From positions 1 to 64,000 of the IMG/VR virus record IMGVR_UViG_3300043015_002666: 64,000 nucleotides of DNA, one strand, 5' to 3'. This document shows positions 3,582-49,641 of this stretch, in pieces. This stretch comes from a virus. The translations under genes were made by a program, and so were the position numbers. Every line of letters starts with the position of its first letter. Position 1 is the first letter of the stretch. The notes under the pieces were generated by a model. The model had not been told where the DNA came from. It saw only the letters and a list, made by a program, of their open reading frames with translations, and did not search any database.

Positions 3582-3626
3582 ATGGCAAGCTTTTCTAAAA
3601 AATACTAATAATAAATAAATACTTTA

Positions 3627-8314: not shown

Positions 8315-8323
8315 AGTGATAAA

Positions 8324-19010: not shown

Positions 19011-20065
19011 GCTGCGTTAATATCACGATCATGGTGCGTATTGCATTCTGGACAAGTCCAGTTTCGGATATTAAGCGGCATTGATTCGTGTACGAACCCA
19101 CAACAGCTACAACGCTTTGAGCTAGGGAAGAAGCGATCTATCTCAACGATAGTTCGTCTAGCCCATTCTGCTTTGTATTTGAGTTGGCGAACGAACTCTC
19201 CCCAACTCGCATCAGCGATGTGTTTTGCTAGTTTTGGATTGCGGAGCATGTTCTTCACTTGTAGCGATTCAACACAAACAACTTGGTTTTCGTTTATTAG
19301 TTTGCGAGACAACTTGTGTAAGTTGTCTAATCGACTATCAGCAATTTTCGCGTGTAGACGGGCTACTTTCTGGCGCACCTTAGCGCGATTATTACTGCCT
19401 TTCTTTTTCTTGGCGAGTTGGCGCTGTAGGTATGCCAGTTTGTTTTGGTAGCGTTTGAAGTGGCGAGGATTATCGACTTTCTCGCCGCTATCTGTGATGA
19501 ACAGGTTATTTAAACCTAAATCAATACCAACCGTTTTAGCGGTTACAGGCATTGGTTTAGACTCAAAACGACACAACATAGACACAAAGTAACGCCCTGC
19601 TTTGTCTTTGCTTACAGTTACTGTGGTTGGTGTGCTAGGTAATTCACGCGACCATCTTATGTTCAAAGGATCTTTTGATTTGGCTATGAACAACTGGCCG
19701 TCACGGTATTTGAATGCAGAACTGGTAAGCGTGATGCTTTGCTTTGCATGTTTCTTTTTGAATTGTGGGTATCGAGCGCGATTGCCCCAAAAGTTTTTAA
19801 ATGCAGTTTGTTGATGGCGTAACGCTTGTTGTAGGGGAACGCTAGATACTTCCTTTAACCATTCGGTTTCTGGGTTCTTTTTCAGTTCAGTTAGCTTTGC
19901 ACTGGCTTGGTTGTAGCTGATTGATTCACCATCTTTGTAGTAAGCATCAGTGCGCCAACGCAAGATTGCATTGTAAACAAAACGAGTACAGCCGAACGTC
20001 TTGGTTAGAAGTTCGGCTTGCTCATTGGTCGGGTAAAACCGTTGTTTAATTGCGATCTCTTTCAT
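18929..20065 (-). CDS. tnpB: TnpB (OrfB_IS605) RNA-guided endonuclease
   Basis: 378 aa with the N-terminal RFYPTNEQ...FGCTRFVYN, a zinc finger CSCCG...CPECN, and the RuvC motif HDRDINAAMNI. Confidence 0.9.
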   Translation of the reverse strand: MKEIAIKQRFYPTNEQAELLTKTFGCTRFVYNAILRWRTDAYYKDGESISYNQASAKLTELKKNPETEWLKEVSSVPLQQALRHQQTAFKNFWGNRARYPQFKKKHAKQSITLTSSAFKYRDGQLFIAKSKDPLNIRWSRELPSTPTTVTVSKDKAGRYFVSMLCRFESKPMPVTAKTVGIDLGLNNLFITDSGEKVDNPRHFKRYQNKLAYLQRQLAKKKKGSNNRAKVRQKVARLHAKIADSRLDNLHKLSRKLINENQVVCVESLQVKNMLRNPKLAKHIADASWGEFVRQLKYKAEWARRTIVEIDRFFPSSKRCSCCGFVHESMPLNIRNWTCPECNTHHDRDINAAMNIKTVGLAGLSQGATGSGVECFHST

Positions 20066-33199: not shown

Positions 33200-36100
33200 A
33201 TGTTAGAAAAACTCAGATCGGCAGTGCTCGCAGTAAATAGTCATAGTGAGCTGCTATCGGTCTTTAACACCTACTCCATATCCATCACACCCACCAGCAC
33301 CAAATCAGCCAATGCTCGCGTGAGAGCCAACGAATTAGCGCAGTCTATTCTCAAGCGCGTTAATGGCGACTTCAGCCAAATCACCGACGAAGAACGCGAA
33401 CAACTCCGAGATTACACCGGTTGGGGCGGCATTGGGGGCTCAACCAATGAGTACTACACGCCTAAATGGGTAGCTAGTGCCGTATGGGATGCCATGTCCG
33501 CGTATGGCTTTACTGGCGGCTCAATCCTTGAACCGGCTTCAGGCGTGGGCGTATTCAGCGAAACCAAACCAAATAACGCGTTAATGACCTCGGTCGAGAT
33601 GGACCCGACCAGCTCAGCCATTAACCAGATTTTACACCCGGAAGACAACGTGATCTCTAGTGGCTTTGAGGCCATCGCCATGGACCCGAACGTCGGAGGT
33701 TTTGACGTTGTAACCGGCAACCCGCCATACGGCGATCGTTCAAGCACTATTGCTCAAGATGGCGAATACAAGGACATTAAGAAGAATGAGCAATACTTTG
33801 TACTCCGTTCTATCGACAAGGCTAAACCCGGTGGCCTGATCGCCCTAGTCCTTCCAACTCAAATTTGTGATAGCAGCAAACTGAAGAAATTCCGCACGCG
33901 TACAGCCATGAAAGCGGAGTTCTTAGGTGCGCACCGTCTGCCTTCTGGTGTATTTGATGGCTCAAGCGTAGTGACTGATCTTGTTATCTGGCGCAAACAC
34001 TCTGAAGAGGCCGCAGAGCAGATCGCTAACGCGGACCCGGCAACGCTAACCGAATCTAATGTGCTTTGGTCTGACTGGATCAACGGAAAGTGGTTTGAGC
34101 GTGACGGATTGCGCTTTATCAATGGCTCGCAAACTATCGGTTTCCAAGGCCGCAAGCTGGTGGACCGTGGCAACCGCTCTAATGAGCAAATTGCTAAGGC
34201 ACTCTCCCACAAGTTTGAATCTCGCATTGAATGGGACCAACTGGATACCGTGGAACCTATTAGCGAGCAATACAGCGACGGCGATACCATTTTCCATAAC
34301 GGCCAACAAATGGAATACGACGGCGGCCAATGGCACGCTGTACAAGCTACAGAGCAACAAAAGACCCTAGATGGCGCTACGTATGGCATCGAGCATTTAG
34401 ATAGCATAGGCGACGCCACCAGCACGACTAAGGCCATGAGCCAGCTCACCGCAGAGCAAGCTATCTCACTGAATGACGATTACGGCCATCTTTGCCATGG
34501 TGAATTCAAAACCATCGTAGCCAACATCAAAAAGCTTCCACCACGTTCCCGCGAAAAAGCGTACAAAGGGATCTTGCTTGGCAAACAGATTGAGCAGTAT
34601 CAAAACCTGTTAGACTTGAGCCGAACGGATAGCGATATTGCCCTGAATGACGAGGAAGTTGCCACACTACGCAACAAGCTAGCCGCGAAAGTAATGGAAA
34701 TGCACATGAAGCATGGTCGCAACTTACCGACCGGTATCAAGTCTATTGACGACAAACTTGCCGCGCATTGGATGCGTTATCAGGGCGCAGTCAGTAAAGA
34801 CGGTCAATTGTCCGATCTGTTAACCGGCAATCTCGCCGTAGCTCAGTCAGAGCAATACGATATGTCACGCATTGATGATGTATTGCATTACTTTGAGCAT
34901 GACCGAGGTATGGAAACCGTCAGATTGACGGACATTCGTTCTGTGTATCTCAATGAGGCCGCGCAACTGGATGATGATCAGCTGATCAATCACCTTGCCG
35001 GGATGGAAAACGTCGCCGCTAACCGTGACGGCTCTTTCTCACCTATGCGTATCGCCACCAGCGGAAACGTGGCCGGTAAGAAACGCAATCTCACCGAGGC
35101 GATTGCTCACACGGACAACGAGACATTGCGCGCCAACTTCATGAAACAGATCAACACGATTGAGGAAAAGCGCGACGCTATTCCAATCAACCAGATCAAG
35201 ATGAAGTTAACGGATAAATGGATTCCCAAACACATCATGTTGGAATTCCTACAGGACCAAGGTTACACCGAGTTCCAGTTAGGCCGCTTTGTGACGGATG
35301 AGGACGGTTTTGAAGACTTTGTAACGGATGAGCGAGGCACTACGTTTACCGGGTACCGCTGGCGCGATGGCAAAAAGGTCAGCTCGCAAGGTGAAGAGTT
35401 CGAGCGACAAATTGAGTCTTATCTCAATTCTGGCGCAGTTCGTGGCGGCAGTGACAACGAACAAAAAGCGATTGTTCGTGAGCGTATGCGTAATCTGGAC
35501 CGTGACTTTACCAACTGGTGCGCATCGAGCGTGCACGCGGACGAACTTGAAGGCCAGTACAACGATATGTTTAACGGCTGGATTGAGCCAAGTTACGAAG
35601 GCACCGACATTGACCTTGAAGGCGTATCCGGGGCGATTAAGTTCATGCCTTACCAGAATTCTACTATCCGCAAACACGCAGCGGACGGTAACGGCATTCT
35701 GGCGCTAGGTACCGGCTTAGGCAAAACACTGACTGCGCTTGGTTTGGGCCAATACCTTATCCAGACCAACAAAGCGAGCCGCATTGCTTATGTCATGCCT
35801 AAATCGGTCCTTGATAACTGGCTGTTTGAGTCGGATATCTTCTTTGGTGAATCGAATCTAGGCGACAAGGTATTTATTGGTATTGATATCGAGCGCGACG
35901 ACGGCAACATGGTCCGTGAGGTAGCCCTTGATGAAGATGGCAAGCCTCGCACTGACGCCAACGGCAACGCCATTAAACGACCAAAAGTGAAGGTGAACAC
36001 CAACGGCAAGAAGATTGCTGAACAACTTCACAACCTCGCGCAGAGCTCCGCAAAAATGGTCTTCATGACCAAGGACGTTTACAACTCTATCCCGCTCAAA

Positions 36101-39100
36101 CCGGCTACGATTGCAGATAACGTCGAAAGTATGGTGGATGCTGGCCTTGTTGCTGGCTCAAACAAGTACGCCAAAGAGGCGAATACGTACCGTGAAGCAC
36201 AGAAAAACGCCAAGTTTGAGCAAAAGCACGCAGATGAAGGTACCAAGAAGAAAGAAACCCTCCCTTTCTATGAAGATCTGTTATTTGACAGCGTGATTGT
36301 GGACGAAGGACACGATTTCCGTAACAGCTTCAAAATGGGCGGCTACGGCAACCGACTTGCTTACCTGCCAAACTCCGCACAAGCCAACCGCGCACTTGAT
36401 ATGCAGATGAAAAATAACCACATCAAGTCACGTAATGATGGCCGTGGTGTTTACATGCTGACAGCGACGCCAACGGTTAACAGCCCGGTTGATTTGTTCA
36501 ACATGCTGTCTCAGGTATTGCCACCAGAAACACTGGCAAAAATGGGCATTGTGGACGCGGACGACTTTATTCGTTTGTTTGGTCACACCGGCGAAACCGC
36601 AGTTACCAAGTTATCGGGCGAAGTGGATACGCGCGAGGCATTGCTAGGCTTCCAGAACCTAGACGCACTACGCAATATCTTTAAACGCTACACGACGGCC
36701 ATGTCGGCTGAAGACGTGCGATCTGACGTACACGTCCCTACTCTCAAAGCCATGACCAACGCGGTTGAAATGAGCGAAGAGCAAAAGGCCGTGTATGAAG
36801 AGCTCCGCCAGCGTGCCGACGCACTGAGTAACCCGGACGAACCTGAAAACCAAGATATCATCGAGCAGTACCCGAATGACTCTGTATTCAGCCTGATCCG
36901 CATGATGGACAAAGCGAACACGGATATGGACCTTTACCATGCCGTGATCACTTACCGATTCAAGAAAGGCGATAAAGACAAGCTTCAGGAAGCGATTGAT
37001 AAACTACCGAAAACTATCAAAGTTCGTCAGCCTAAGCTCGATGGCGAAGGCGAGCCGGTCCTTAATGCCGCCGGTCAAATGACCATGGAAGTGGTCGAGA
37101 TTGATGCTAATTACGATCTGGATACGGACGGCAAGTTCTTAACGCTCAAACTCGCGCAAGAACTGGACGGCCAATTCAGCAAGCTATGCAGTGACGCTGG
37201 TCTGAAATTCTCGCACCCGGTATCACCGAAATACGCCAAGTTCCTAGAAAACGCTAAGACGGCTTATCTCGCTGGTGGCAAGCAATTGGTATTCACGGAA
37301 GAGAAAACGCAGCACGTTAAATTGGCTCGTATCATAGCGGACTATATCGGCTGTGATATCTCAGAAATCGGGATCTTGAATAGTGACACGGTATCGGGCA
37401 AGAAAGGCTCTAAAGCGACGGAAGACGACGAAGAGGCGGGATTGGCTGCGCTTGAGAAAGCTTACAACTCAAGCCAATACAAATTCATGATCCTCAATAA
37501 AAAAGGTGAAGTGGGCGTGAACCTGCATCGTGGTACCACGGATATCCATCACCTTACTTTGCCTTGGACCCCATCTAGCTTGACTCAACGTAATGGCCGT
37601 GGCGCGCGTGTTGGCTCTAAAGCCTCTCAGGTGAACGTGCATTACTATGCCGGTAAGGGCTCGTTTGACCAATTCCGCATTGAAACCATCGAGCGCAAAG
37701 CGAAATGGATTCAAGACTTGTTCAATGGTGGCGAAAGCTATGTTGAGAACGGCAGTGCAGACGATGGCAGCGATACCGCTATCATGCTGGCCGCAGACCC
37801 GGAAGCAGCTAAGGCACGTATCGAGCAAGCACGCATCGAGCGCGAGCGTCGAATTAAACGTGAAGAGCAGCGACAGGCCGCTATCAACGTCAGCAAATAC
37901 GTTCAGGCTTCTATTGCTGCAAATACGGACCTAGAACCTATCCGCCAACGCTTAGCCGAGCTGGTGGATGAAATCGACAACCAGACCGAGAAGACCCGCG
38001 ACGCAGAAGAGCGCGCCAAAGGTGAAAAACGCAGTTCGTGGGAGTACAAGCGATTCAAAGATGAAAAAGATCGTCTGTTCACCCTGACGAAAGAGCGTGC
38101 GCAGCTTCAGAAGACCATCAAGCTTTCTGAAGAGGCCGGGAACACCATTAAACGCCTGAAATCCGTGGTTGAGTCTTCTATTCAAGATGGAACACTGGCC
38201 GGTTACGACGATATCACCACACACCCGGAGCTGTACGCGACTAAAAATGGCGTTGTTCTGCGTAAAGGCTACACGTATCACGTCAACGTACCAGCTTACT
38301 ACTGGAAAGAAGACAGCGAGCATGACGAATACATCCTAACGCTGGATGAATTCAACCGCGCTGAAGGGACCGCAACCGGGATCATCGTGAGCAAACCAAA
38401 CGAGGCTAACCCGACCGCCAGCGCAGGTACCCGCAAATCCAATATCGCGTTTGAGAAGTGGTTTAAGTTGGCTGAGGTGAATCATTCCGAGCAGGAACTT
38501 GCTTCACGCATTGCTAGCGGCATTCCGCTCAGTGCTATCCCAAGTACGATTGACCGTGAAACCTTCTTTGACTTCCACAAACGTGGTTTATTGGTGAAGT
38601 ACGGCCACTACACCAAGCCACTGGTTTACGTGGATAACGGTCGCGTAAAACAACTAGACAGTATGGAATTGCCTGACGGCGCATTCCTGATCTACCCGGA
38701 CTCAAGCGACCCATCGCTAATGAAAGCGTTAATCACGCAAGCCACCAGCGATCTAGAGCGCACCGGACGTGTAATGTTTGCTGACCATGGCACTATCCGT
38801 GCTCTAGTTGGCGAAGACTGGATGCAACAAGCGCAAGCCGGTGGTAACACTGCATCACAAAGTGACGTTGTAGCCGCTGTACAAAAAGCGGTTGAAGCGA
38901 CAGAGAGTGACGCGGAGAACCAGAGCGAGCTTAATGCCGGTCTGATTGAGGCCGCAGGGACTTACAGTGTTTCACGCATCAAGTTTGTGGAATGGGTACA
39001 AAATGAAGTAAACGCGATTAAGTGGGACGGCTATTCCAACCGTGACGAAATCAAGACACTCGTATCGGATGCCATGAAAGACTATCGCAGCTCGTTTAAG

Positions 39101-39859
39101 GCGCGTGGTGAAGTCAAACGACAGGAAACCATTGATAAACTGTTTGCAGACTATATCGCCCTACTCCAAAGCGATCCGAGCCGCAAAGAGCGTTTAATCA
39201 AACTGAATGAAGCTATGCAGCGTCGCAAACGTAGTCATGACTTTATGAATGACTTAGACGAACTCTACCCGGATGACAATTCCGCTATTGTGTCTGTTTA
39301 TGCTGACCTGACCATTACAGAGCGTCACTCTCAACTTGAGAACGGCGAGAAACTGCTAGCAACAAGCAGCTATTCACGTCGCAGTGCGCTAGATAAGTTT
39401 GATTCGGTTCGCTTGTCTTACCCGAACGTGTTCAGCCAGAAAATTGATGAACTGTACGGCGAGAAGGAAGTACCAGAGCCAGAGCCGGTGATTACCGAGC
39501 GCCAGCAAGAAAAGATTGAACAAATTCAATCGGTCGATTTTGACGGCATCGAGACACTTAAAACCGAACTGGCTAAGATTGGTATTACGGTCCAACCGGT
39601 GACACAAGACATTTCTTGGAAGTACAAGCGCAAGACTATCTCTATCAAAGCTTACGCGGGTATTGGCCTTCAAGATATCAATGAGAAGCAAGGCGCACTC
39701 GCTAAGCTACTTATGGGATATAAGAACAAGGACAACAAAGAGAAGTACGGCGCACGCTTCAATAGTGACCCTAGTGAAGACTTTGCCGGTGCGTGGTGGT
39801 TCATTGACTCGGAGAGTGATCTAGAATCATTCTACAACGACATTATGGCCGCTGCTTAA
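33200..39859 (+). CDS. giant N6-adenine methyltransferase + SNF2/DEAD-like helicase fusion (P1 DarB-like)
   Basis: 2219 aa. Methyltransferase motif I is EPASGVGVF and motif IV GNPPYG (33719-33730). Helicase motifs are GTGLGKT, DEGH (about 36304), LTATP and QRNGRGARVG. Confidence 0.9.
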   Translation: MLEKLRSAVLAVNSHSELLSVFNTYSISITPTSTKSANARVRANELAQSILKRVNGDFSQITDEEREQLRDYTGWGGIGGSTNEYYTPKWVASAVWDAMSAYGFTGGSILEPASGVGVFSETKPNNALMTSVEMDPTSSAINQILHPEDNVISSGFEAIAMDPNVGGFDVVTGNPPYGDRSSTIAQDGEYKDIKKNEQYFVLRSIDKAKPGGLIALVLPTQICDSSKLKKFRTRTAMKAEFLGAHRLPSGVFDGSSVVTDLVIWRKHSEEAAEQIANADPATLTESNVLWSDWINGKWFERDGLRFINGSQTIGFQGRKLVDRGNRSNEQIAKALSHKFESRIEWDQLDTVEPISEQYSDGDTIFHNGQQMEYDGGQWHAVQATEQQKTLDGATYGIEHLDSIGDATSTTKAMSQLTAEQAISLNDDYGHLCHGEFKTIVANIKKLPPRSREKAYKGILLGKQIEQYQNLLDLSRTDSDIALNDEEVATLRNKLAAKVMEMHMKHGRNLPTGIKSIDDKLAAHWMRYQGAVSKDGQLSDLLTGNLAVAQSEQYDMSRIDDVLHYFEHDRGMETVRLTDIRSVYLNEAAQLDDDQLINHLAGMENVAANRDGSFSPMRIATSGNVAGKKRNLTEAIAHTDNETLRANFMKQINTIEEKRDAIPINQIKMKLTDKWIPKHIMLEFLQDQGYTEFQLGRFVTDEDGFEDFVTDERGTTFTGYRWRDGKKVSSQGEEFERQIESYLNSGAVRGGSDNEQKAIVRERMRNLDRDFTNWCASSVHADELEGQYNDMFNGWIEPSYEGTDIDLEGVSGAIKFMPYQNSTIRKHAADGNGILALGTGLGKTLTALGLGQYLIQTNKASRIAYVMPKSVLDNWLFESDIFFGESNLGDKVFIGIDIERDDGNMVREVALDEDGKPRTDANGNAIKRPKVKVNTNGKKIAEQLHNLAQSSAKMVFMTKDVYNSIPLKPATIADNVESMVDAGLVAGSNKYAKEANTYREAQKNAKFEQKHADEGTKKKETLPFYEDLLFDSVIVDEGHDFRNSFKMGGYGNRLAYLPNSAQANRALDMQMKNNHIKSRNDGRGVYMLTATPTVNSPVDLFNMLSQVLPPETLAKMGIVDADDFIRLFGHTGETAVTKLSGEVDTREALLGFQNLDALRNIFKRYTTAMSAEDVRSDVHVPTLKAMTNAVEMSEEQKAVYEELRQRADALSNPDEPENQDIIEQYPNDSVFSLIRMMDKANTDMDLYHAVITYRFKKGDKDKLQEAIDKLPKTIKVRQPKLDGEGEPVLNAAGQMTMEVVEIDANYDLDTDGKFLTLKLAQELDGQFSKLCSDAGLKFSHPVSPKYAKFLENAKTAYLAGGKQLVFTEEKTQHVKLARIIADYIGCDISEIGILNSDTVSGKKGSKATEDDEEAGLAALEKAYNSSQYKFMILNKKGEVGVNLHRGTTDIHHLTLPWTPSSLTQRNGRGARVGSKASQVNVHYYAGKGSFDQFRIETIERKAKWIQDLFNGGESYVENGSADDGSDTAIMLAADPEAAKARIEQARIERERRIKREEQRQAAINVSKYVQASIAANTDLEPIRQRLAELVDEIDNQTEKTRDAEERAKGEKRSSWEYKRFKDEKDRLFTLTKERAQLQKTIKLSEEAGNTIKRLKSVVESSIQDGTLAGYDDITTHPELYATKNGVVLRKGYTYHVNVPAYYWKEDSEHDEYILTLDEFNRAEGTATGIIVSKPNEANPTASAGTRKSNIAFEKWFKLAEVNHSEQELASRIASGIPLSAIPSTIDRETFFDFHKRGLLVKYGHYTKPLVYVDNGRVKQLDSMELPDGAFLIYPDSSDPSLMKALITQATSDLERTGRVMFADHGTIRALVGEDWMQQAQAGGNTASQSDVVAAVQKAVEATESDAENQSELNAGLIEAAGTYSVSRIKFVEWVQNEVNAIKWDGYSNRDEIKTLVSDAMKDYRSSFKARGEVKRQETIDKLFADYIALLQSDPSRKERLIKLNEAMQRRKRSHDFMNDLDELYPDDNSAIVSVYADLTITERHSQLENGEKLLATSSYSRRSALDKFDSVRLSYPNVFSQKIDELYGEKEVPEPEPVITERQQEKIEQIQSVDFDGIETLKTELAKIGITVQPVTQDISWKYKRKTISIKAYAGIGLQDINEKQGALAKLLMGYKNKDNKEKYGARFNSDPSEDFAGAWWFIDSESDLESFYNDIMAAA

Positions 39860-39912: not shown

Positions 39913-40320
39913 ATGATTACTAAAGTTGAGTTACCGACGCCTGAAGCACTTAAGCCACTGCGTGACGAAGCGTTAGAAGGCACCACAGCGGACGAATGGA
40001 CGACTAAGCACTTATTGTCGATTACGTCATTACTGAGTGAGCATCCCCTCTCCTATCGCACGTATGGCCCTTACTGGTGGTCGATTAAGGCGCTATTGAA
40101 AGAGCGCGGTTTTGATTACGGCGAAGACGACGAACCGGTCACGCGTGAACACTTCAGCTACGCGGACCCGGTTGATTTGATTTGCGCGGCGTGGGCTTAT
40201 CAACAACACATCGTGGACATGCAGATCATTGGTTTTAACATTCATCCATTCACAATTGATGATGAACCGTTTGATTATTCCATCGAAGACACCGACCTAG
40301 AAGCAGCCCCATACCTTTAA
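39913..40320 (+). CDS. hypothetical acidic protein
   Basis: 135-aa ORF with a GAGGA Shine-Dalgarno. Confidence 0.7.
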   Translation: MITKVELPTPEALKPLRDEALEGTTADEWTTKHLLSITSLLSEHPLSYRTYGPYWWSIKALLKERGFDYGEDDEPVTREHFSYADPVDLICAAWAYQQHIVDMQIIGFNIHPFTIDDEPFDYSIEDTDLEAAPYL

Positions 40321-40406
40321 CCCAAACCGGGACCACCATTGGTCCCGGCTCATTTGCTCACACCCTTACCCACCGTTTTTGTGGATAACCCTTCTTACTT
40401 ATTTTT

Positions 40407-40666
40407 GATATCCGTAATGATATCTAAATTGATATCACAATAAATATCTAAAGTGATACCTTTCTAGGTATCCTTGTATATATCAATCAAGATATCTTTC
40501 TTGATACAAGTAACGGTATCCACTATGATACAACGATTGGTATCATTTTGAGTTTAAGTAACGATATCCATCTAGATATCACTAGGGATATCGAAGCTCA
40601 CACCAATGCAAACAACTACACACTAATATTGATATCAATCAAGATATCCCATTCGATATCTTTGAT
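40407..40666. repeat. upstream centromere-like array: GATATC-type hexamers on an exact 12-bp register
   Basis: Hexamers start at 40407+12n for n=0-11, as GATATC, GATACC, GGTATC, GATACA or TATATC. Further copies are at 40563, 40575 and 40587, and at 40631, 40643 and 40655. A DnaA box is at 40380-40388. Confidence 0.8.
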
Positions 40667-40687
40667 TGAGGTAAAAGGCTGATAAAA

Positions 40688-41473
40688 ATGAGAAAAATCA
40701 TGATTACCGCTAGAAAGGGCGGCGTTTGTAAAACAACTATCACTGTAAACTTGGCTTACACTCTGGCAAGGCTAGGGAAGAAAGTTTTAATTATCGACCT
40801 TGACGCACAGGCCGACTCAACCAAGTTTTATCGCGCTGGTCGTTCGGACTTTTACATTGGCGACGTACTACTTGAGCGCAAATTTGACATAAGAAAAGCA
40901 ATCTACAAGGCGCAGGTAAAAGGCGAAGAGTTGGAGAATTTACACATCATTCCGGGCCGACCTAATGACGAAATGACCGTGCTTGACAGACAAGTTTTCT
41001 CACTAAGTCGAAGCGAAGAGAGGCTAACTTACCAGCTTAACAAGCTCGATACTGACGAATACGACTTCCTACTTATCGACACATCACCAACGGCCACTAC
41101 GCTATCCATGAACGCAACCATGGCGTGTGACGAATTCCTTTTCCCTACCGATTTTACCGGCCTGTCTCTGGATGGCATCGACTCTATTATTGAGCACATT
41201 CAAGATCTCAAGCTGATTGAGGAAGATGAAATCAACTTCCTTGTGGTGCCGTCATCTGTAGATAAGAAGTCGGTTAAAACGGTTCGCTATGGTGAGGAAT
41301 ACATCGCGGCCAAATATCCAGACAACCGAACTAAAACCGTGATCTGGCAAAAGCCAGCCATTTTTAACGAGGCGGTATTGCGATTCCTGCCAATCGCAGC
41401 GATCAGCAATTCCGACATTTCATCTATTCACTACAAAGAACTAGCTCAAGAGGTACTTGATAATGTCCTTTAA
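40688..41473 (+). CDS. parA: ParA-family partition ATPase
   Basis: 261 aa with the deviant Walker A KGGVCKTT, then DLDAQ and IDTSP. Confidence 0.9.
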   Translation: MRKIMITARKGGVCKTTITVNLAYTLARLGKKVLIIDLDAQADSTKFYRAGRSDFYIGDVLLERKFDIRKAIYKAQVKGEELENLHIIPGRPNDEMTVLDRQVFSLSRSEERLTYQLNKLDTDEYDFLLIDTSPTATTLSMNATMACDEFLFPTDFTGLSLDGIDSIIEHIQDLKLIEEDEINFLVVPSSVDKKSVKTVRYGEEYIAAKYPDNRTKTVIWQKPAIFNEAVLRFLPIAAISNSDISSIHYKELAQEVLDNVL

Positions 41474-41873
41474 TCAAAAATTGTACGACGAACTATGCGA
41501 AAAGCGAGCTAGCGGAGTAGGGCTTAGGCCAGCGGAAAAAGCGGAACTCAGCAAGCTAGAAAAAGAGCTACGTCGCAGCAATAAGCCAGCTCAGGAAGAT
41601 AAACAGCCAGAAACAAACATTCTAGGCGCAAAAAATAACAGCGATAATGAGAAATCACCTAAGCTAATTCGCTTTGTTCAAGTGGAAAGACGCGCACTAA
41701 AAACGCGTCGTGAATCATTGTTAGCAGACTCGCCAGACGACGTTAAAGAGGCGTTAGGTTCAGTAAAAGCAGCCAGTGAAGATTTGCTGGTTAGAGCTGC
41801 CGTGCTAAGCCTATCAAGGCTTTCCGACAAAAAGCTCATTGCACTAATGAAAGAAGCTCAAATGAATTCGTGA
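41463..41873 (+). CDS. putative centromere-binding partition protein (small ParB/ParG-like)
   Basis: 136 aa, overlapping the parA stop by 11 nt, with an AGAGG Shine-Dalgarno. Called from position in a type-Ib-like par cassette. Confidence 0.55.
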   Translation: MSFNQKLYDELCEKRASGVGLRPAEKAELSKLEKELRRSNKPAQEDKQPETNILGAKNNSDNEKSPKLIRFVQVERRALKTRRESLLADSPDDVKEALGSVKAASEDLLVRAAVLSLSRLSDKKLIALMKEAQMNS

Positions 41874-42009
41874 TATCTGTGTTGATATCATTTCAGATAA
41901 CAAAAGAGATACCCAAAGCGGTATCTCTTTTTATATCTTATGTGATATTTAATTGGGTATCATTGATGATATATATACAGATATCAATTTAGATATCATT
42001 CAAGATATC
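41872..42009. repeat. downstream centromere-like array: 12 hexamers on a 12-bp register
   Basis: Hexamers start at 41872+12n for n=0-11 (GATATC and variants). The last copy overlaps the stop of the convergent 612-aa gene. Confidence 0.8.
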
Positions 42010-43838
42010 TTTCCTCGCTTGGCTGGCAACGCTGCCGCCGGGGAATAAATCCACTCCATGAAGTCGGCCATTAGCATAGGTACCACGGCACCCAACCCGG
42101 ACCAATCATCACTGTAGTTAGATAGGTAGGCTTGTTTCGCTTCAGACGGACTATGAAAACCGAGCATTACCTTGTGTTCATCAAACGCCCCGGAGTCGGG
42201 ATCGACCTGATTTATCACGTAAGCATACTTAGGCTTTTCATTCTCACCTAAGAACACATCCACTTCGTCACCGTCCGCACCTTGCGAGCCATAGATATAA
42301 CCGTAATGATGATTCATGCGGGTACGCCATTCCACGCCGTTCGCGTCGGTTCCTTTGCGGTCACTGCCTTTTGGATTCTCAATTTCAACCGGCAAACCAG
42401 CAAAGCGCAATGACCCGGTTTGGTAGTCATTGTTTTCTAGCTGTTCCTGCGTGGGTTCTGGCAAGTCGTTTTGTGGGGATGTGGCCGCTTTGTTAGCGAG
42501 CTCATCAATACGTGCTGACTCAAACATAAAGCCACCTTGCCCGGTTTGCTGCTCTTCCAAGCGTTGGCCGACTTGCGAGAGCACTTCAATTAACGTCACC
42601 TCACCACCACCAAACATATCACCAATGGCGCTACCATCTTTGCGGAGCTGTTCATTGATAACGTTCGCCAGTTCTTTAAAGGCTTCAGCCATGCGCTTGG
42701 CACTGCGATTGTTCGCAGAGATAAACCGGGCGAGGGCTTCCACTTCAGGATCGTTGTCACCAAACAACCCCGATTGCGCGATCAGTTCGTTAATGTCCTG
42801 TCCGCTGTCTTTTGCCTGTCTGACAAGCTCAGTCGCACTCACAAGCGAGTTAAGCGCCTTATCGGCTAATGACTCATCTTGCGACTCAACACCGCTTACA
42901 ATGCCATCTGACACCGATTTATGGACCACACCGTCTAGGTACTGCATTTCTACAAACTGACTGGCTGAACTGTTGAGCGCATTCAGAATGTTTCGAATTT
43001 CTGGATCAGGCTCTTCCGCCACCAGCTTAACCAGTCTGTCATTCTTGTACGCCTTGGCAAAGATGGCGTTTTGCATGCGATCTAGTAACTGGCGGGTAGG
43101 GCGACCGTCAGACGTCACCAGACCGGCGGCGGACGTATCACCAAGCGCACGCATGAACGATTGTACAAATCCATCATTACTGCGCGCTAGCAAGCTGCCA
43201 GACTCGGACGGCGAGAGTAGGGCCATCATTTTATCGTCCATGACTTCAGCATCGACCCAAGCCGTTTCTGACGCGCTCATTTGCTGCAAGTCAGAAAGGT
43301 TAGAATCACGCGCAAACGTGGCCCGGTCCATTTCGGTTAATCGTTCACGCACTAACACCGGCTTATCCATTCCTTTCACGACGTCAGAATCAAAGCCAAA
43401 GCGTTGAGCGTTATCAATTAAATACTGGCGATAATCATCACCCTTACTGGTGCTGTAGGCTTTCAAAATAGCCATGGTTCGACCGTTGCCAGACTCCACC
43501 ACCAGATCGGGACCAACAATAGGCGCACCATGCGAACTAAGGCCGCTATCAGTGAGCTGTGCCGGTCGCAGGTTCCCGGCCATCTTGTCAATCTGCATTA
43601 TCGAAGCTTTACGCGTGCGGTCGCGTGGCTGTAATTCTTCCGGGAACGCGGGGTTAATTTTGCCATCTGGCGTATTAGATGGAATAAGTTGATCCGCCTC
43701 GACCAACTTAAACGCGGTTTGGACCTCATCACCTTTGGCCGTGACAACAAAACTATCCCGGCCTTTCTGACTGGCACCGTCAAACAGTGCCAGTAGTTCA
43801 GAGAATGATTTAGCCCGTTGAATTGAGGCTAGAATCAT
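42000..43838 (-). CDS. ParB/Srx-like N-terminal domain fused to an inorganic-pyrophosphatase-like C-terminal domain
   Basis: N-terminus: QPRDRTR...VVESGNGRTMAILKAY. C-terminus: VEIENPKGS..RK, HHYGYIYGSQGADGDEVDVFLG and DPDSGAFDEHKVMLGF, which parallel the E. coli Ppa active-site blocks. Confidence 0.7.
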   Translation of the reverse strand: MILASIQRAKSFSELLALFDGASQKGRDSFVVTAKGDEVQTAFKLVEADQLIPSNTPDGKINPAFPEELQPRDRTRKASIMQIDKMAGNLRPAQLTDSGLSSHGAPIVGPDLVVESGNGRTMAILKAYSTSKGDDYRQYLIDNAQRFGFDSDVVKGMDKPVLVRERLTEMDRATFARDSNLSDLQQMSASETAWVDAEVMDDKMMALLSPSESGSLLARSNDGFVQSFMRALGDTSAAGLVTSDGRPTRQLLDRMQNAIFAKAYKNDRLVKLVAEEPDPEIRNILNALNSSASQFVEMQYLDGVVHKSVSDGIVSGVESQDESLADKALNSLVSATELVRQAKDSGQDINELIAQSGLFGDNDPEVEALARFISANNRSAKRMAEAFKELANVINEQLRKDGSAIGDMFGGGEVTLIEVLSQVGQRLEEQQTGQGGFMFESARIDELANKAATSPQNDLPEPTQEQLENNDYQTGSLRFAGLPVEIENPKGSDRKGTDANGVEWRTRMNHHYGYIYGSQGADGDEVDVFLGENEKPKYAYVINQVDPDSGAFDEHKVMLGFHSPSEAKQAYLSNYSDDWSGLGAVVPMLMADFMEWIYSPAAALPAKRGKIS

Positions 43839-44512
43839 GCGGCTACCTCTTCAGCAATGGCAAGCTCGCTTTGGTGATACTCAAACCATTTAATGGTACC
43901 GGTCTTTAACTCATCAAGGCTCAACTTATCCTTAAGCAATTCAAGTACGCGACGGAATGCGCTTTTATCAACCCCGGTAAACTCACCTAACTTAAATTTC
44001 TCTTCAATCGTCAGCTCTTTATCAGTTTCAGGCTCGTACTTCTTGATAAGCTTCATTGCCTTGGAGCGTTGCGCTCTATTCCACGTCCACGAATCATTCC
44101 CCTGATTTTCGCTTTCTTTACCGGCTTTTTCTTCCCAATAACTATACCCGCGTGATAAACGGCCTTTATAACCGAACTGGATGCCATGCTTAGAACGGAA
44201 AACCACATAGCCATCTTTTTGTTCTAGGACTGAATAATCCGGGTAAAAAGCCATCTCATATTCGTACCAGTTTGGGTAACTCAGAACGACGTCAAACGCC
44301 TTGATCTTGTCGGAACGACCCATTGCCTTAAAGTCGTCGAGAGAAATCACGTCCGCTTTGGGAGTGTTGGACGCTTTGAGTTTTTTCAGGATGGCAATGC
44401 GCTCTTTACCCTTGGCGATACGGTCCTTTAATGACAGTGAGCCATCGCGCAATTCTTTGATTAGGGAATTTAACTGACTGCTCAACCCTAGCTTTGTTTT
44501 TAAATCCATCAT
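43835..44512 (-). CDS. hypothetical protein
   Basis: 225-aa ORF with an ATGA overlap. Confidence 0.7.
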   Translation of the reverse strand: MMDLKTKLGLSSQLNSLIKELRDGSLSLKDRIAKGKERIAILKKLKASNTPKADVISLDDFKAMGRSDKIKAFDVVLSYPNWYEYEMAFYPDYSVLEQKDGYVVFRSKHGIQFGYKGRLSRGYSYWEEKAGKESENQGNDSWTWNRAQRSKAMKLIKKYEPETDKELTIEEKFKLGEFTGVDKSAFRRVLELLKDKLSLDELKTGTIKWFEYHQSELAIAEEVAA

Positions 44513-44742
44513 GACACCTCTACCACGAACCCAAACATGGTCGCCTTAAACATAAAATCTGCCGGGGAAACTTCCGGGCCTTCTGGCATGTGGCCGTATT
44601 CGTTCGGGATATCATCCCAAGGAAAACGCATACCCAAATCATCAAACTCTGGCTCTGCCGGTTCGTTCATATCGTAGCTATCGTAAAACGACACAAAACA
44701 AGTCCGCTCATCGCTACTGGTTAGCTTTAGTCGAATCATCAC
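44509..44742 (-). CDS. hypothetical acidic protein
   Basis: 77-aa ORF in the same operon. Confidence 0.6.
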   Translation of the reverse strand: MMIRLKLTSSDERTCFVSFYDSYDMNEPAEPEFDDLGMRFPWDDIPNEYGHMPEGPEVSPADFMFKATMFGFVVEVS

Positions 44743-45934
44743 TACCTCTTGCCTTGTCGTGTAAGTGAGCTATTACGCCCACAATAAATTCAAAGTGTTC
44801 TGGATCGTTCACGGCCAATCGCCCTCTTGATTCGTTATCAATCAGAGATTCAACCCCCATCGTGATCACTTCTGTAGCCGTGGCACCGTCGATATCAAAC
44901 GGATCGGCATGGTTGTAAAACTTGGTGGCGTAGGGCGTGAATGCGCCGTCATCAATCGTGTATTCACGTTCTGAGTAGTTAATCCCACGCTTAGATCCCC
45001 ACTTATCCTGATAGATATCACGCAGGGAACGGATACCATTAGATTTAGCTAGGCGGTCCTTTAGAAAGCGTTTCGACATTTCGAGCACTTCCGGGTGATC
45101 GTACTCAAGCGAATGGGCCAGCTCATGCCATAGCACACGCTTGGTAAAACTCTCGCCCACACTGATTGAACGCTCACTATTGCGGTAATCTTGGCGCGCT
45201 TTGCGCACCGTAAAGTTGATAGGTTCAGCAGTGAACGCCACCAGCGAATACAGCTCACCGGCTGCGGTAATGAGCTTTTGTTTAGCTCTGCCACCGCCCC
45301 CGGTAAAGTCGCCTTTGCGCTGGCGAGACAAGCGATTGTTTGCCAGCTTATCAAAGCCTGATTGCATCGCTTTCCTTTGGCCGTCCTTAAGACTGACCGG
45401 AGAGTTAAACATTAACTCATTCACTACACCGGATAGCTGGTGGCCCACTTCCTTGTATTTCTCCCGGTGAATATCCCGGACCTCTTCATAAATGCCAAAA
45501 GTGTGGTTATCGTTTGGTTGCGCCTTGTCAGCCCCCACCAGTCGATACACATCGTAAGCTTGCGCATGCTGAGCTATAGCATCGAGCGTGCGTGCTTTCT
45601 TTGGCTTACTCCATCTTTGGGCCTCAATGAGATCCGTGATTCTAGCATTGCCTTTAATGGTTTCGCTTACTTCACTCTTAAGGTTTCGGTCTATCTCAAC
45701 ACCAAAAGAGGCCAGCACATCCCGGCCCTTTTGAGTGACAGCTTTCAGCTCGGTTACTTCGCTATCGGATGGATTCACGCCTTTTCGCCCTGTCAGCTCT
45801 GACAAAATATCAAGACGTTCCTTGGTTAAAGCCATGCGATCAAGAAGAGGCACGTTGGCCCCTTCTCGTTTCAGGTAAACCAATATCTCCACGGCGCGAC
45901 CGGCTTTTTTAACGCGTTCGCTAAGTGGGACCAT
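44714..45934 (-). CDS. zincin-like metallopeptidase domain protein
   Basis: 406 aa with HExxH in LWHELAHSLEY. Confidence 0.65.
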   Translation of the reverse strand: MVPLSERVKKAGRAVEILVYLKREGANVPLLDRMALTKERLDILSELTGRKGVNPSDSEVTELKAVTQKGRDVLASFGVEIDRNLKSEVSETIKGNARITDLIEAQRWSKPKKARTLDAIAQHAQAYDVYRLVGADKAQPNDNHTFGIYEEVRDIHREKYKEVGHQLSGVVNELMFNSPVSLKDGQRKAMQSGFDKLANNRLSRQRKGDFTGGGGRAKQKLITAAGELYSLVAFTAEPINFTVRKARQDYRNSERSISVGESFTKRVLWHELAHSLEYDHPEVLEMSKRFLKDRLAKSNGIRSLRDIYQDKWGSKRGINYSEREYTIDDGAFTPYATKFYNHADPFDIDGATATEVITMGVESLIDNESRGRLAVNDPEHFEFIVGVIAHLHDKARGSDDSTKANQ

Positions 45935-48900
45935 TACACTGTCACCTCCGATTGAAGTTCAACCAAGCGAGCAAACGCGGCTTCTAGTAAGTCGTTATGC
46001 TCGTCTAAGGTACCGGCTGATTCAAAGCTGGCATAAGCAGCCTCAATGTCGGCTTGGTACTGCTCAAGAATCTCAATCGTTGCGTCACCGGAGTAATCAC
46101 GGATAGTGCGTAGCGCATCAGTGTGCACCTGCTCTTCTGAGTTAGTTTCCACTGGTTCAGGCTCCTGTACCGGCTCTGGTTGCGGCTCTGGCTGTTGTTT
46201 TGGTTTATCGTCCGTGTAAGTCTCAATAAACGGTTTCTGACCGCCATTGTGCTCTATACGGATACGCTGAGCGATCTTCATCGCATCATTAATGCTGTAG
46301 CCGTTAACTAGCAACGTGTCGTAGATATCATCTTGACCTTGGTAGTTCATTGAGCCGTCATCATTGAACCACTTAACCGTTGATAAGCCTTTTAGCATGG
46401 CTTTGAACTTCTCGGTTTCAGCGTCCAGCACGTTTTCTACCGGCGGCTCGTTAATACCTTCAATGTAAACACCCGCGTTTACAATCTCTTCCTTACCAAC
46501 CGAGAAAACTTCGTCAGTGGTACCCGCCTCTCTTAACGTGACTCTGGATGCGCCAATATTCACAATCTTGTATTGACCATCGCCCAACGCGATAATGTCA
46601 CCAACCTTGTTGACCTTGTTCGTATTTGTTTCTTCCTCTGGATCGTACCACTGTGCTTCGTGAAGCAATTTAACAAAGTCAGCTTTGCTAATTTCGTTCT
46701 TAAGCATCGCTTCAAAGTTAACGCCTACATGCTTATTCTCGCCTTGGGCCATACCAGCGTTAGAAATCGTTCTGATATCGTAGTCAGACAAATCCAAGTA
46801 GTGAGCAAACAGTTTTTCGCCCTTAGATTTACTGATTGGGTAGCCTTGCTCTACCGCGCTATCAATCATTTCTTTGTACAGGTTGTAAACGCCGTACACG
46901 TAGCCGTTGTACTTAATCTTGTCTTTTGTCTTAGGAACGATATCTTTGAAATCTTTAGTTCCATAAACAAAATTCTCGTCAATGTACTCATCCAGTTTTT
47001 TACTCGTTGCGCCCTTCATGGCTTCGAACTTATCAGGCTCATCGTTAACGCTCATGTAGGCTTTACGGGCCGCATCACTCAATTTCTCTTTTGCATCGTC
47101 GTCCATAAGGTCAAACGCTCGGAGGAGTTCTTGAGGATTTTTCTGACCAACATAGGACCACGACTTACCAAAAAGACCCGGAGTGATAATGTCATATTCG
47201 CGCTGGTTAAAGTCGTACACTTCACCGTTCACTTCAACCACCGGCGCGTTAACGTCGTAACCTTCATTGGCATCTAACCAATACCCAATATCGCTCGCCC
47301 ATTTCTTTTTATGTCTTGCACTGGTGGACGCATTCAGAAGGTCGGCTCTGATTGTATCTGGCACATTGTGAATAAGCGTTTCTGACAGCATTAATTTGCC
47401 ATCTTTAAGTGCTAACGCACCAACCTCAACCGATTTAACTAGCGCACGGATTGCATCAGCAAAACTTGTGCTGTTGTCTTTATGTTGTTTGGTTTCTTCG
47501 CCGCTGTCGTCTAGGCCGGTAATGGCCGGTAAACCTGCCGCCACACGTAGATCGTTAAAACCTTCTTCTTCATCCGTGCCAGCAAAGTGATTAATGGCAC
47601 CCGGATCTTGCAACTCTCCAACGTAAGCCTCTAAAAGAGCGGCCTTAACCTGATCCCAGCCTGATAAACTTTCAGCTCCGGTAATAGGTGAACCTTCGTC
47701 ATAAGTAAGATTAAAAGAGCCATCTTCTTTGTAATGAATATCGTAAGAGCCATAATTACTGCTTGAATCAATCTTGAATAAAGGCGATTCAACGTTAACG
47801 GATAAATACATTTCTTTATCTAGGTTTAGATCTGCTTGATCTAAGCCATGCTTATCAATATTCCAACCTTCAGGCATACGCTTGCCTTTCACTAACGCTC
47901 TTAGCTCTGCAAGGGCTTTCTCGTTCTTAACGCGGACGTCAGAGACAAGAACGTCAATATAACCGGCCTCCTCTTCAATCATGGTTGGTGTCACCAGTGA
48001 TAGGGACGCATTCCAAACCTTAAACGTATCCGGGATGCTTTTACGACGTTCAAACTCATCTTGCTTGCGCAATAGCTTGCTAAACGCTTGCTTAAAGCTA
48101 GATGCAGCTACTTGGAATTTAATGTCTTCCATCTGCTTGGTTGTGATACGATCCGTATTGTTCTCGTCCATCCAGTCATACAGGAATTGACGCACGATAG
48201 TTTCCGCCGAATCTTCGTCGGCCAGTGAAAAATCTTCACCTGACTCTGATAGCGGTCTAAGCTCAAAGTCGCTCACTTGTTTAGGCGTTAACGCTTCTGC
48301 ATACGCGATTGCACCATGGCGAATTGCACGGCCAGCGTTAGGGAACTTAACTTCCGCCTCTTCCGCGTTGAGCACCTTAACAACTTCCGCATCACTTGGC
48401 GTATTCCCCATACCAGCCGGGCGCAATTGCAGGCCGTACCAATGCAGACCGCTTGTGGTTTCTTCTTCCTGTTCGACTACGCCACCAGCTTCGGGTACGT
48501 CGTTGACTTCACCAAGTTTCCAGATTGAATGGCGCTTAGTGAATGCTGGCTTAGTGGCAACTTTGTTGTACTCCGCAATCATGGTTAGCACGTTGTTAAC
48601 TTGCGGCTGGTGGCCTTGACGTTGCAAGGTCTTCAGCTTACCGGCAAGATTGCTCACAAACAGGGAACGGTCAAAACCGGCAAGGTTTGGATCATTGCTA
48701 TCAATGCCAGAGATATTCATAAGAGAAGAAAGCAAGCGAACGTTACCATCTTTGACAACGATATCTGCCGCTGCTTTAAACGCTGGCGAACCGAGCAATT
48801 TACTGTCGGTCGTTTCTGGCTTGTTGTTATCCGGGTTTTCACCGGTACCCGGCACAAACTTATTGGCTAACTGCTTGCGTAGCTCTTCCTGAATGTCGTT

Positions 48901-49641
48901 CTGGTTGGCGATCTGCTTATTGAGCGTATCAATGCGCTTTTGCTTCTTAGCGTTAGCCTCTTCGATGCTATCAAGCTGATCCGACTGAGTATTAATGTTC
49001 GCTTCAATCTCTTCTAGCTGCGCTTGTGTCGCTTCAAGCTCTTGCTTTTGTTGTGCGTTTTGCTCTTGTCTGGCTGCGAATTTCTCCGAGTTCTTTTCAA
49101 CTAAGTTACTCAGCGCAAGGGCCATTTGGGAACGTGAAATATCACGGCCACCTGAAGGCGCGACCGCGTGCGTTACGTCACGACTGTTCACCAAGAATCG
49201 GAACGCGATCAGCGTATCGTCAGCATTGATTTTTAATGGATCATTATCCGGGGCATGAAATACCAGTGACACGCTCTGACCGTCAGAAAGATTCAGCTTT
49301 GCCACTTGAACCGCAACCGAACCGCTTTTACGTGGCTTGCTGATCTCACGCCCTGTTACTTCAATGCCAACCGGCTTAAGGTGTTTGTTTAGCGTATTCG
49401 AAAAACCGATAACGCGAGTCTCTAAACGGGCCGCTTTGGCTTTGATGGCTTCAAGCATCATTACCGGCATAGCGTCAAACTGAGACAAGTACGCTTGCTC
49501 AATGTCGGCCACTTCGACCGACTCAAGCATTAGTTGGTGTTCGTCCGCTTGAAAGATGGCACTTACGGCCTCTTCACTTAACGACTTGGCAAAGTGGTCT
49601 ACGCGGTCCACCACTCGAATTTGATTGGTCTGCAAAAACAT
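45934..49641 (-). CDS. large (1235 aa) putative virion/injected protein
   Basis: Long ORF with a coiled-coil segment. Its N-terminal roughly 200 aa is paralogous to the upstream 205-aa protein. Confidence 0.8.
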   Translation of the reverse strand: MFLQTNQIRVVDRVDHFAKSLSEEAVSAIFQADEHQLMLESVEVADIEQAYLSQFDAMPVMMLEAIKAKAARLETRVIGFSNTLNKHLKPVGIEVTGREISKPRKSGSVAVQVAKLNLSDGQSVSLVFHAPDNDPLKINADDTLIAFRFLVNSRDVTHAVAPSGGRDISRSQMALALSNLVEKNSEKFAARQEQNAQQKQELEATQAQLEEIEANINTQSDQLDSIEEANAKKQKRIDTLNKQIANQNDIQEELRKQLANKFVPGTGENPDNNKPETTDSKLLGSPAFKAAADIVVKDGNVRLLSSLMNISGIDSNDPNLAGFDRSLFVSNLAGKLKTLQRQGHQPQVNNVLTMIAEYNKVATKPAFTKRHSIWKLGEVNDVPEAGGVVEQEEETTSGLHWYGLQLRPAGMGNTPSDAEVVKVLNAEEAEVKFPNAGRAIRHGAIAYAEALTPKQVSDFELRPLSESGEDFSLADEDSAETIVRQFLYDWMDENNTDRITTKQMEDIKFQVAASSFKQAFSKLLRKQDEFERRKSIPDTFKVWNASLSLVTPTMIEEEAGYIDVLVSDVRVKNEKALAELRALVKGKRMPEGWNIDKHGLDQADLNLDKEMYLSVNVESPLFKIDSSSNYGSYDIHYKEDGSFNLTYDEGSPITGAESLSGWDQVKAALLEAYVGELQDPGAINHFAGTDEEEGFNDLRVAAGLPAITGLDDSGEETKQHKDNSTSFADAIRALVKSVEVGALALKDGKLMLSETLIHNVPDTIRADLLNASTSARHKKKWASDIGYWLDANEGYDVNAPVVEVNGEVYDFNQREYDIITPGLFGKSWSYVGQKNPQELLRAFDLMDDDAKEKLSDAARKAYMSVNDEPDKFEAMKGATSKKLDEYIDENFVYGTKDFKDIVPKTKDKIKYNGYVYGVYNLYKEMIDSAVEQGYPISKSKGEKLFAHYLDLSDYDIRTISNAGMAQGENKHVGVNFEAMLKNEISKADFVKLLHEAQWYDPEEETNTNKVNKVGDIIALGDGQYKIVNIGASRVTLREAGTTDEVFSVGKEEIVNAGVYIEGINEPPVENVLDAETEKFKAMLKGLSTVKWFNDDGSMNYQGQDDIYDTLLVNGYSINDAMKIAQRIRIEHNGGQKPFIETYTDDKPKQQPEPQPEPVQEPEPVETNSEEQVHTDALRTIRDYSGDATIEILEQYQADIEAAYASFESAGTLDEHNDLLEAAFARLVELQSEVTV

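Follow-up and report, generated by a model that had tools for sequence, protein, structure and literature searches.

A putative partition cassette in a P1-like phage

Within the first 64,000 nucleotides (nt) of the IMG/VR virus record IMGVR_UViG_3300043015_002666 (positions 1 to 64,000, hereafter the window), a parA gene and a small gene for a protein of 136 amino acids (aa) stand between arrays of GATATC-like hexamers repeated every 12 bp. From the sequence of this locus and of its relatives, we consider it highly probable that it is a type Ib-like active partition cassette inserted where the darB-ulx and ddrB operons of a marine P1-like phage converge. The comparisons given below lend good support to reading the arrays as a split repeat centromere, as in the par2 locus of plasmid pB171, and the element as a probable plasmid prophage. 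The logic of the cassette is that of known type Ib systems; its family of putative binding proteins is uncharacterised and its centromere grammar distinctive. The components of the cassette are as follows.

40407 to 40592, no strand assigned: distal upstream array of 16 slots in one 12-bp register, 15 of 16 filled; putative parC1-like centromere and operator
40631 to 40660, no strand assigned: proximal triplet of perfect GATATC hexamers 12 bp apart, 28 bp 5' of the parA start
40688 to 41473, plus strand: parA, encoding a 261-aa Walker-type ATPase that has KGGVCKT as its deviant Walker A motif (residues 10-16) and lacks an N-terminal helix-turn-helix (HTH) domain
41463 to 41873, plus strand: gene for the 136-aa putative centromere-binding protein, its start overlapping the parA stop by 11 nt
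41872 to 42009, no strand assigned: downstream array, 12 of 12 slots on a 12-bp register; putative parC2-like array

An earlier note on this DNA had described twelve consecutive upstream hexamers starting at 40407+12n, two further upstream triplets, and twelve downstream hexamers starting at 41872+12n and running into the end of the convergent 612-aa gene. Slot-by-slot reading bore out the first run, with GATATC three times followed by AATATC, GATACC and GGTATC at n=0-5, and TATATC, GATATC, GATACA, GGTATC, GATACA and GGTATC at n=6-11. Slot n=12 (40551) reads AGTTTA and is not a site, after which perfect GATATC hexamers occupy slots n=13-15 (40563, 40575 and 40587) with the register kept. These three form the first of the two triplets. 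The second (40631, 40643 and 40655) is also present and perfect, but it begins 44 bp past 40587 and so lies 8 bp off the distal register. The upstream side holds 18 hexamers in all (40407-40660), in two registers. The downstream run was found as described, each of its slots (n=0-11) having at most one mismatch to the consensus. Its first hexamer overlaps the TGA stop (41871-41873) of the 136-aa gene and its last (42004-42009) falls within the final codons (K-I-S) of the 612-aa gene, so the array spans the entire gap between the two stop codons. The symmetric 12+12 arrangement that the earlier note had drawn from these counts is not borne out: there are 18 upstream units in two registers, and the arrays of relatives are unequal, with none downstream in one of them (L001). 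The apparent symmetry is an accident of counting.

Most units are GATATC or one-off variants of it, as had been claimed, and the variants also include AATATC, GATATT and GATATA; GATACA, which was counted among the one-off variants, has two mismatches to the consensus. The central TA is unchanged in all 30 units and the outer positions tolerate substitutions. The spacers between hexamers are 78-79% A+T, yet they share only ~32% identity with one another, and the GC content of the array and par region is 0.42 against 0.48 in the window.

The ATPase encoded by parA has the deviant Walker box that the earlier note had reported. It matches the Pfam models AAA_31 (2.4e-34) and CbiA (1.3e-14), with the ParA model also matched, and the ParA-like phrog_164 in PHROGs (3.4e-42). 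Among proteins of solved structure it is closest to Soj (6iub, 4.6e-14), pSM19035 delta (2oze) and TP228 ParF (4dzz), and it is 44-54% identical to the products of parA genes on Vibrio and Shewanella plasmids. Because the Walker A motif already appears at residues 10-16, there is no N-terminal DNA-binding domain. A short Walker-type ParA with a deviant Walker A of the form KGGxxK[ST] and without the HTH domain of type Ia is characteristic of type Ib loci, as is a small gene directly 3' of parA that is unrelated to HTH ParB or to ParB-N (Srx-like) proteins. We place the start of this small gene at the ATG at 41463, not at the mechanically listed TTG at 41457, in agreement with the N-termini of all homologues, and the gene is translationally coupled to parA. 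Arrays are found both upstream of parA (40407-40660) and downstream of the 136-aa gene (41872-42009), as expected of a split centromere. The type Ib layout resembling pB171 par2, which the earlier note had proposed, is thus supported by a short ParA, a coupled small gene and two-sided repeats, all of which recur in homologous cassettes.

Hexamer arrays exceed chance and differ from ordinary tandem repeats

When periods of 6-21 bp were scanned, runs of at least three hexamers with no more than one mismatch each occurred only at period 12. Five sites in the 64 kb hold such runs, four of which flank the par genes, and no run of three or more arose in any of 2000 shuffles of the upstream region. 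GATATC occurs 53 times in the window against ~17 expected from base composition; the 36 sites outside the arrays are in line with the maximal-order Markov expectation of 37.4. The arrays exceed chance. As a separate observation, GATATC, with its 36 copies outside the arrays, is the commonest palindromic hexamer of its composition in the window, and others of the same composition are scarce (ACTAGT 0, CATATG 1, ATCGAT 3, GTATAC 4 and CTATAG 4), which may reflect restriction-site avoidance or codon effects.

Neither the phage collection nor the plasmid collection yielded a true nucleotide relative: blastn of 40300-42100 returned no match in the former, and its sole match in the latter, 140 bp of ParA in Spiroplasma, is spurious. 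A scan for the pattern GATATC-N6-GATATC-N6-GATATC was run on 596 Gb of genomes and on IMG/VR viral contigs. The matches were mostly whole-unit tandem repeats or coding repeats unrelated to ParA. Of the 13 scanned runs that were checked, 12 had a spacer identity of 0.63-1.0 and the other (L083) one of 0.37, versus 0.32 here. One match was an informative exception. Locus L053, from a Legionella metagenome-assembled genome (JAUXYG010000049.1), has at 3397-3900 a tract of over 42 tandem units of 12 bp (TGATATCYATGA / GGTATC) immediately 5' of a gene for an unrelated 339-aa ParA with an N-terminal extension before Walker A (type Ia-like); the gene for a 462-aa protein comes next. GRTATC repeats phased at 12 bp may here have been recruited independently as a centromere.

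Repeats accompany the par genes on unrelated replicons

A gene of the 136-aa type directly follows parA (~260 aa) in every locus examined for which upstream sequence was available. One such locus (L001) belongs to another P1-like phage and shares the gene order DarB-Ulx-[ParA-127aa]-ddrB-DarA. The others include Rep3-like metagenomic plasmids (L002-L007), in which a Rep3-like gene lies within ~1 kb, and RctB-like Vibrio plasmids (L010 and L011). Complete plasmids of V. parahaemolyticus, V. tasmaniensis, V. harveyi and Shewanella baltica also carry the cassette, with the small gene annotated as "hypothetical protein", and MOBF, MOBC and MOBP plasmids are among the replicons.

The type of repeat changes with the small protein. 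Where that protein is at least 45% identical to ours (L001, L002-4 and L005-7), the repeats are GATATC hexamers at 12 bp with unconserved spacers: 17 in-register slots upstream of parA in L001, 10 slots upstream and two groups of three downstream in L002, and 3+8 slots upstream and two groups of four downstream in L005. At 27-44% identity, the repeats are GTATWA or GTATAC hexamers (L010, L014 and L015) or palindromes of 22-24 bp such as ATGTATAGCATTAATGCTATACAT (L012, L013 and L016). Sites stand on both sides of the operon in these divergent loci, except for L010, in which repeats were seen upstream only; across the family, downstream groups of hexamers or sites are present in L002, L005, L012, L013, L014, L015 and L016. 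The second residue of a conserved segment of the small protein also varies with repeat class (K-L-I-R-F, K-A-[IV]-R-F or x-P-I-R-F), a correlation that is suggestive but confounded by phylogeny.

Since the cassettes sit on unrelated replicons, the repeats are tied to the par genes and not to a replication system. Repeats that travel with both genes and diverge with one of them behave as a cognate centromere would, which argues against replication iterons. This comparative evidence is the strongest argument we have for a cognate centromere, and it bears directly on the alternative that the repeats are the Rep-bound iterons of an AT-rich replication origin beside a DnaA box, with the parA pair merely adjacent. 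Such an origin would suit the perfect DnaA 9-mer TGTGGATAA at 40380-40388, the lowered GC content of the region (0.42 against 0.48 in the window) and the Rep3-like genes within ~1 kb of the cassette in L002-L007. The same repeats, however, accompany par genes on replicons with different initiators or with none nearby, their sequence follows the divergence of the 136-aa protein, and in the window the surroundings of the arrays contain no Rep gene. Iterons are typically 17-22 bp, and 6-bp units with unconserved spacers are unlike them. We regard an iteron origin as extremely unlikely.

The DnaA box itself was considered as a sign of an origin and rejected. The 9-mer, which overlaps a GATAAC hexamer variant at 40384, occurs twice in the window where 0.47 copies would be expected, a count attained in 6 of 100 shuffles; none was found beside the arrays in any of the related loci examined. 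The box that the earlier note had placed against the first array is therefore present, but its copy number is insignificant and it is not conserved in relatives.

The 136-aa protein

No match to the 136-aa protein was found in Pfam, PHROG, NCBIfam or PDB sequences, nor did the C-terminal domains alone match Pfam at E<=10. The family is tiny, comprising four clusters in a set of 5.8 billion proteins and 30 representatives among 1.84 billion proteins. An alignment-based search of genome, viral and metagenome contigs added no further relatives; the peptide-pattern method may have been too strict, or the family too rare.

A first AlphaFold2 (AF2) run on a 4-sequence alignment was poor, with a predicted local distance difference test (pLDDT) score of 61. 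With a 23-sequence alignment, the monomer model reached a mean pLDDT of 83, and 10-residue blocks over residues 71-130 averaged above 90. This model consists of a helical hairpin (residues 5-40), a disordered linker (41-66) and a confident, compact C-terminal domain in which the conserved extended segment K-L-I-R-F-V (67-72) is followed by helices at 73-89, 91-98, 106-119 and 122-135. R70, R111 and A112 are invariant across the family, and a conserved basic residue lies within a P-x-E-K-A motif in the N-terminal helical region or linker. From the model, it is plausible that the C-terminal domain is a ribbon-helix-helix with an insertion.

Promoter- and terminator-like signals are built from array units

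Two signals of the kind expected at the ends of an operon are embedded in the arrays.

40501 to 40529, plus strand: promoter-like TTGATA-17-TATGAT, 10 of 12 matches; putative par promoter
41902 to 41931, plus strand: terminator-like hairpin in which the inverted units GATACC and GGTATC make a 12-bp stem, with a T-rich tail after it

The promoter-like element is made of two deviant GATACA units two periods apart, the -35/-10 pair fitting the 24-bp interval. TTGATA-17-TACGAT built on two units recurs in L002 (4434-4462) and L005 (2610-2638), and two-hexamer hairpins 3' of the operon are likewise present in L002 (5750-5775) and L005 (3927-3952). Short iterated repeats 5' of the operon that overlap a promoter-like element are, at the level of sequence, what type Ib loci have. 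Recurring as they do in three diverged loci, the embedded signals would agree with the autoregulation known for type Ib systems (PMC5016525). As the putative par promoter is built of two array units, occupancy of the array would repress the operon.

The arrays could on these grounds be held to serve transcriptional control only, the upstream one as an autorepression operator and the downstream one as a terminator or an insulator against ddrB, with the centromere confined to a small subset of the sites or situated elsewhere. A promoter-like element and a terminator-like hairpin made of array units, the lack of a downstream array in L001 and the known role of type Ib centromere-binding proteins as repressors (PMC5016525) would all suit this view. 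It must contend with the number of sites, as 12 to 18 is far above the need of an operator, and with the recurrence of sites on both sides in most of the family loci examined. Operator repeats of type Ib systems are, moreover, themselves centromeric, as at omega parS and TP228 parH/OF (PMC5016525). A role in control alone is in our judgement unlikely, and we continue to treat the arrays as a putative centromere that also carries operon signals.

A third array inside a phage gene

The fifth period-12 run lies away from the par genes.

18209 to 18262, no strand assigned: third array of five in-register units (AATATC GCTATC GATAAC GATATC GATATC), a candidate extra binding site

It is contained in a conserved 154-aa gene (18094-18558, minus strand; phrog_25265, E=8e-49) 22 kb from the par arrays. 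The array encodes the peptide EISSAISWTLSPEIAQRIF, in which conservation is partial and every fourth position is hydrophobic. All four Ile codons of the stretch are ATA, a codon used for 6.3% of Ile residues across 14 large open reading frames (ORFs) of the window. Four homologues (55-64% identity) encode ESEIETALCWTLSEDIAKR[IV]F by means of ATC, ATT and CTT codons, and the hexamers are absent from them. This codon usage points to selection at the nucleotide level for putative binding sites within the coding sequence, and the third array is the most unusual element of the system. A gene for an IS605-family TnpB or Cas12f-like protein (18929-20065, minus strand; OrfB_IS605, Cas12f1-like TNB and HTH_OrfB domains) is separated by ~400 bp from the gene with the third array.

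The five units at 18209 may constitute an additional binding or pairing site, an extra centromere or a regulatory site. The array could pair with those flanking the par genes, or it could couple occupancy by the partition protein to expression of the downstream phage genes. Omega, a global regulator in pSM19035, offers a model for such a regulatory role. A more far-reaching interpretation, which would include such pairing or coupling, is that the 136-aa family is a structurally new class of centromere-binding protein, distinct from canonical ribbon-helix-helix proteins, that polymerises on palindromic hexamers at a 12-bp pitch and also acts as a genome-wide organiser or regulator, the third array being functional; we find this doubtful.

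Cassette position and phage backbone

The window comes from an 86-kb contig. The phage is a distant relative of P1: its portal protein is 40% identical to P1 Prt, and it has DarB-like, Ulx, ddrB and terminase-subunit genes, a large terminase homologue included. The cassette is flanked (33200-39859 and 42000-49641) by a large antirestriction set of the P1 Dar type. A 2219-aa helicase-domain protein in this set is 60% identical to a truncated ORF upstream of Ulx in L001 and is called DarB-like by its P1 DarB-like placement, not by a Pfam or PHROG match; a 1235-aa ORF is likewise called by position only, matching the place of the DarA-domain gene in L001. Ulx and the convergent 612-aa protein, which combines ddrB-ParB and InPase domains, also belong to this set.

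In L188, another P1-like contig, darB-ulx and the ddrB-like gene are directly convergent, ~40 bp apart, and their junction holds only a hairpin and no par genes. It is precisely at this junction that the window and L001 carry the cassette and its arrays. Because a P1-like element lacks the cassette at the same position, the par module is an insertion.

P1-like phage-plasmids are marked by the presence of P1-type structural genes, Dar genes and plasmid maintenance genes on one replicon of ~90 kb. The plasmid prophage that the earlier note had argued for is plausible on this P1-like backbone; the ORFs scanned in the window include no replication initiator, and for that reason the plasmid state is one that we infer.

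A 206-aa Xer/Cre-like tyrosine recombinase (4619-5239, plus strand) adjoins the terminase genes (5295-8332), a placement that we take to resemble that of cre in P1, and it may serve in dimer resolution or represent a truncated integrase. Elsewhere in the window, tandem repeats of 27/54 bp (60044-60354, ~8-11 copies, 65-75% matches) inside a 1027-aa ORF (59733-62816, minus strand) probably encode a repetitive, fibre-like structural segment.

The third array in a phage gene 22 kb away, with its codon-level selection, the tyrosine recombinase at 4619-5239 and the failure to find a Rep gene in the window could be taken to mean that ParA and the 136-aa protein do something other than segregate DNA, such as positioning or silencing phage DNA or regulating globally, in a prophage that is perhaps not a plasmid. 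This is very unlikely, we believe, given that the closest relatives of the cassette reside on bona fide circular plasmids of Vibrio and Shewanella and that the phage backbone is P1-like. The recombinase, too, is small and Xer/Cre-like and occupies what is presumably a cre-like position, which suits dimer resolution.

Several results nonetheless weigh against a type Ib partition cassette. Profile searches of the PDB, solved ribbon-helix-helix proteins included, gave no match for the 136-aa family, and hhalign gave none against approximate sequences of ParG, omega and CopG. Foldseek of the AF2 model against the PDB and BFVD returned nothing at E<=0.001, and the model places between putative helices 1 and 2 an extra helix that is atypical of the ribbon-helix-helix. 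The fold prediction that the earlier note had asked for has in this way delivered a confident C-terminal domain, with Foldseek and profile searches finding no ribbon-helix-helix match to it. The promoter and terminator matches are at consensus level and occur at about background frequency. No downstream array was found in L001, which makes the second array dispensable in at least one relative, and the scan of ORFs in the 64-kb window brought up no replication initiator.

Comparison with known partition systems

The closest parallel in layout is par2 of pB171, a type Ib locus for which constructs of the form parC1+ parA+ parB parC2+ have been described (PMC4270457, PMC9662831). Both systems combine a short Walker-type ParA with a small, non-HTH (putative, in our case) centromere-binding protein, and both have arrays of short 6-bp repeats on either side of the operon, with the upstream array overlapping the promoter region or, here, the putative promoter. 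In pB171, as Ringgaard et al. are said to have described in 2007, parC1 and parC2 contain 17 and 18 hexamer repeats. The two loci are likened by layout alone. Here the repeats are palindromic GATATC with an invariant TA, a strict 12-bp register and random spacers. The 261-aa ParA here has Soj-like best matches, the 136-aa protein has a structured N-terminal hairpin in its model, and the host element is a phage whereas that of pB171 par2 is a virulence plasmid.

In size and domain order, the 136-aa protein resembles the type Ib ParB of pCXC100 from Leifsonia, a 139-aa protein with a solved C-terminal ribbon-helix-helix in which a strand at about residue 70 precedes helix 1 (77-94) and helix 2 (99-118) (PMC3074162). 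Both have an N-terminal region followed by a C-terminal domain that opens with a strand near residue 70 and continues with helices. No sequence similarity between the two was detected, and the fold is solved in one and hypothesised in the other. The pCXC100 centromere consists of nine non-palindromic 9-bp direct repeats, upstream only, that successive dimers bind cooperatively (PMC3074162). By B-DNA arithmetic, the rotation per site would be +51 degrees here versus about -51 degrees for the 9-bp sites of pCXC100 and the 7-bp heptads of omega.

The delta/omega system of pSM19035 and ParF/ParG of TP228 also pair a ParA with small dimeric proteins that act as repressors and centromere-binding proteins on very short repeats, 7-bp heptads for omega and, in parH of TP228, 4-bp boxes with AT-rich spacers, these arrays being operators as well (PMC5016525). 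Omega has three parS sites on one replicon, with 9, 7 and 10 iterons (PMC5016525), and the window, with its three arrays, is comparable in having several per replicon. The repeats of those systems differ from those in the window in length, symmetry and spacing, and omega and ParG are proteins of ~70-76 aa with unstructured N-terminal tails, unlike the 136-aa family.

P1 itself relies on a large ParA that contains an HTH domain, together with an HTH ParB and one complex parS, with an IHF site, beside repA. The expected role is the same, segregation of a low-copy plasmid prophage, and the phage backbones are homologous. The cassette in the window differs from the P1 type Ia ParA/ParB/parS system in being type Ib, of Vibrio-plasmid ancestry, and in standing at a different site, between ulx and ddrB. 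Phage-plasmids have conserved phage genes and variable plasmid genes (PMC7969092), and functional replacement of a P1-type Ia ParAB-parS system by a plasmid-type cassette fits this pattern.

Proposed mechanism and significance

We propose that a dimer of the 136-aa protein would bind each palindromic hexamer through its conserved C-terminal domain, the dyad lying over the invariant TA, and that the K-L-I-R-F-V segment and the helices might form a ribbon-helix-helix in the dimer. Dimers would coat the 12-bp lattice cooperatively, and the coated arrays would be the centromere, or partition complex. At 12 bp per site on B-DNA of 10.5 bp per turn, each dimer would be rotated by ~+51 degrees relative to the last, giving a protein spiral of one turn per seven sites and ~1.7 turns per 12-unit array. 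The two extra helices of the larger C-terminal domain may supply the neighbour contacts for this wider spacing. The N-terminal hairpin and linker, with the basic residue of P-x-E-K-A, would stimulate the ATPase of nucleoid-bound ParA-ATP, and the resulting ParA gradient would move the complex over the nucleoid, spacing and segregating the copies of the prophage plasmid. Two inverted downstream units would double as the terminator of the operon, and the flanking arrays may cooperate as parC1 and parC2 of pB171 par2 do (PMC4270457).

The current understanding of the partition mechanism is unchanged by this locus, which provides a clean example of a phage-plasmid in which P1-type partition appears to have been swapped for a plasmid-derived type Ib cassette. 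With palindromic 6-bp sites, a 12-bp pitch and a promoter and terminator apparently built from the sites themselves, its compact design would be a convenient model for the effects of spacing on partition-complex architecture. For the family as a whole, the analysis suggests a likely function for the "hypothetical proteins" encoded beside ParA on many Vibrio and Shewanella plasmids and in marine P1-like phages, and for several members it predicts the cognate centromere, whose repeat type differs from one to the next.

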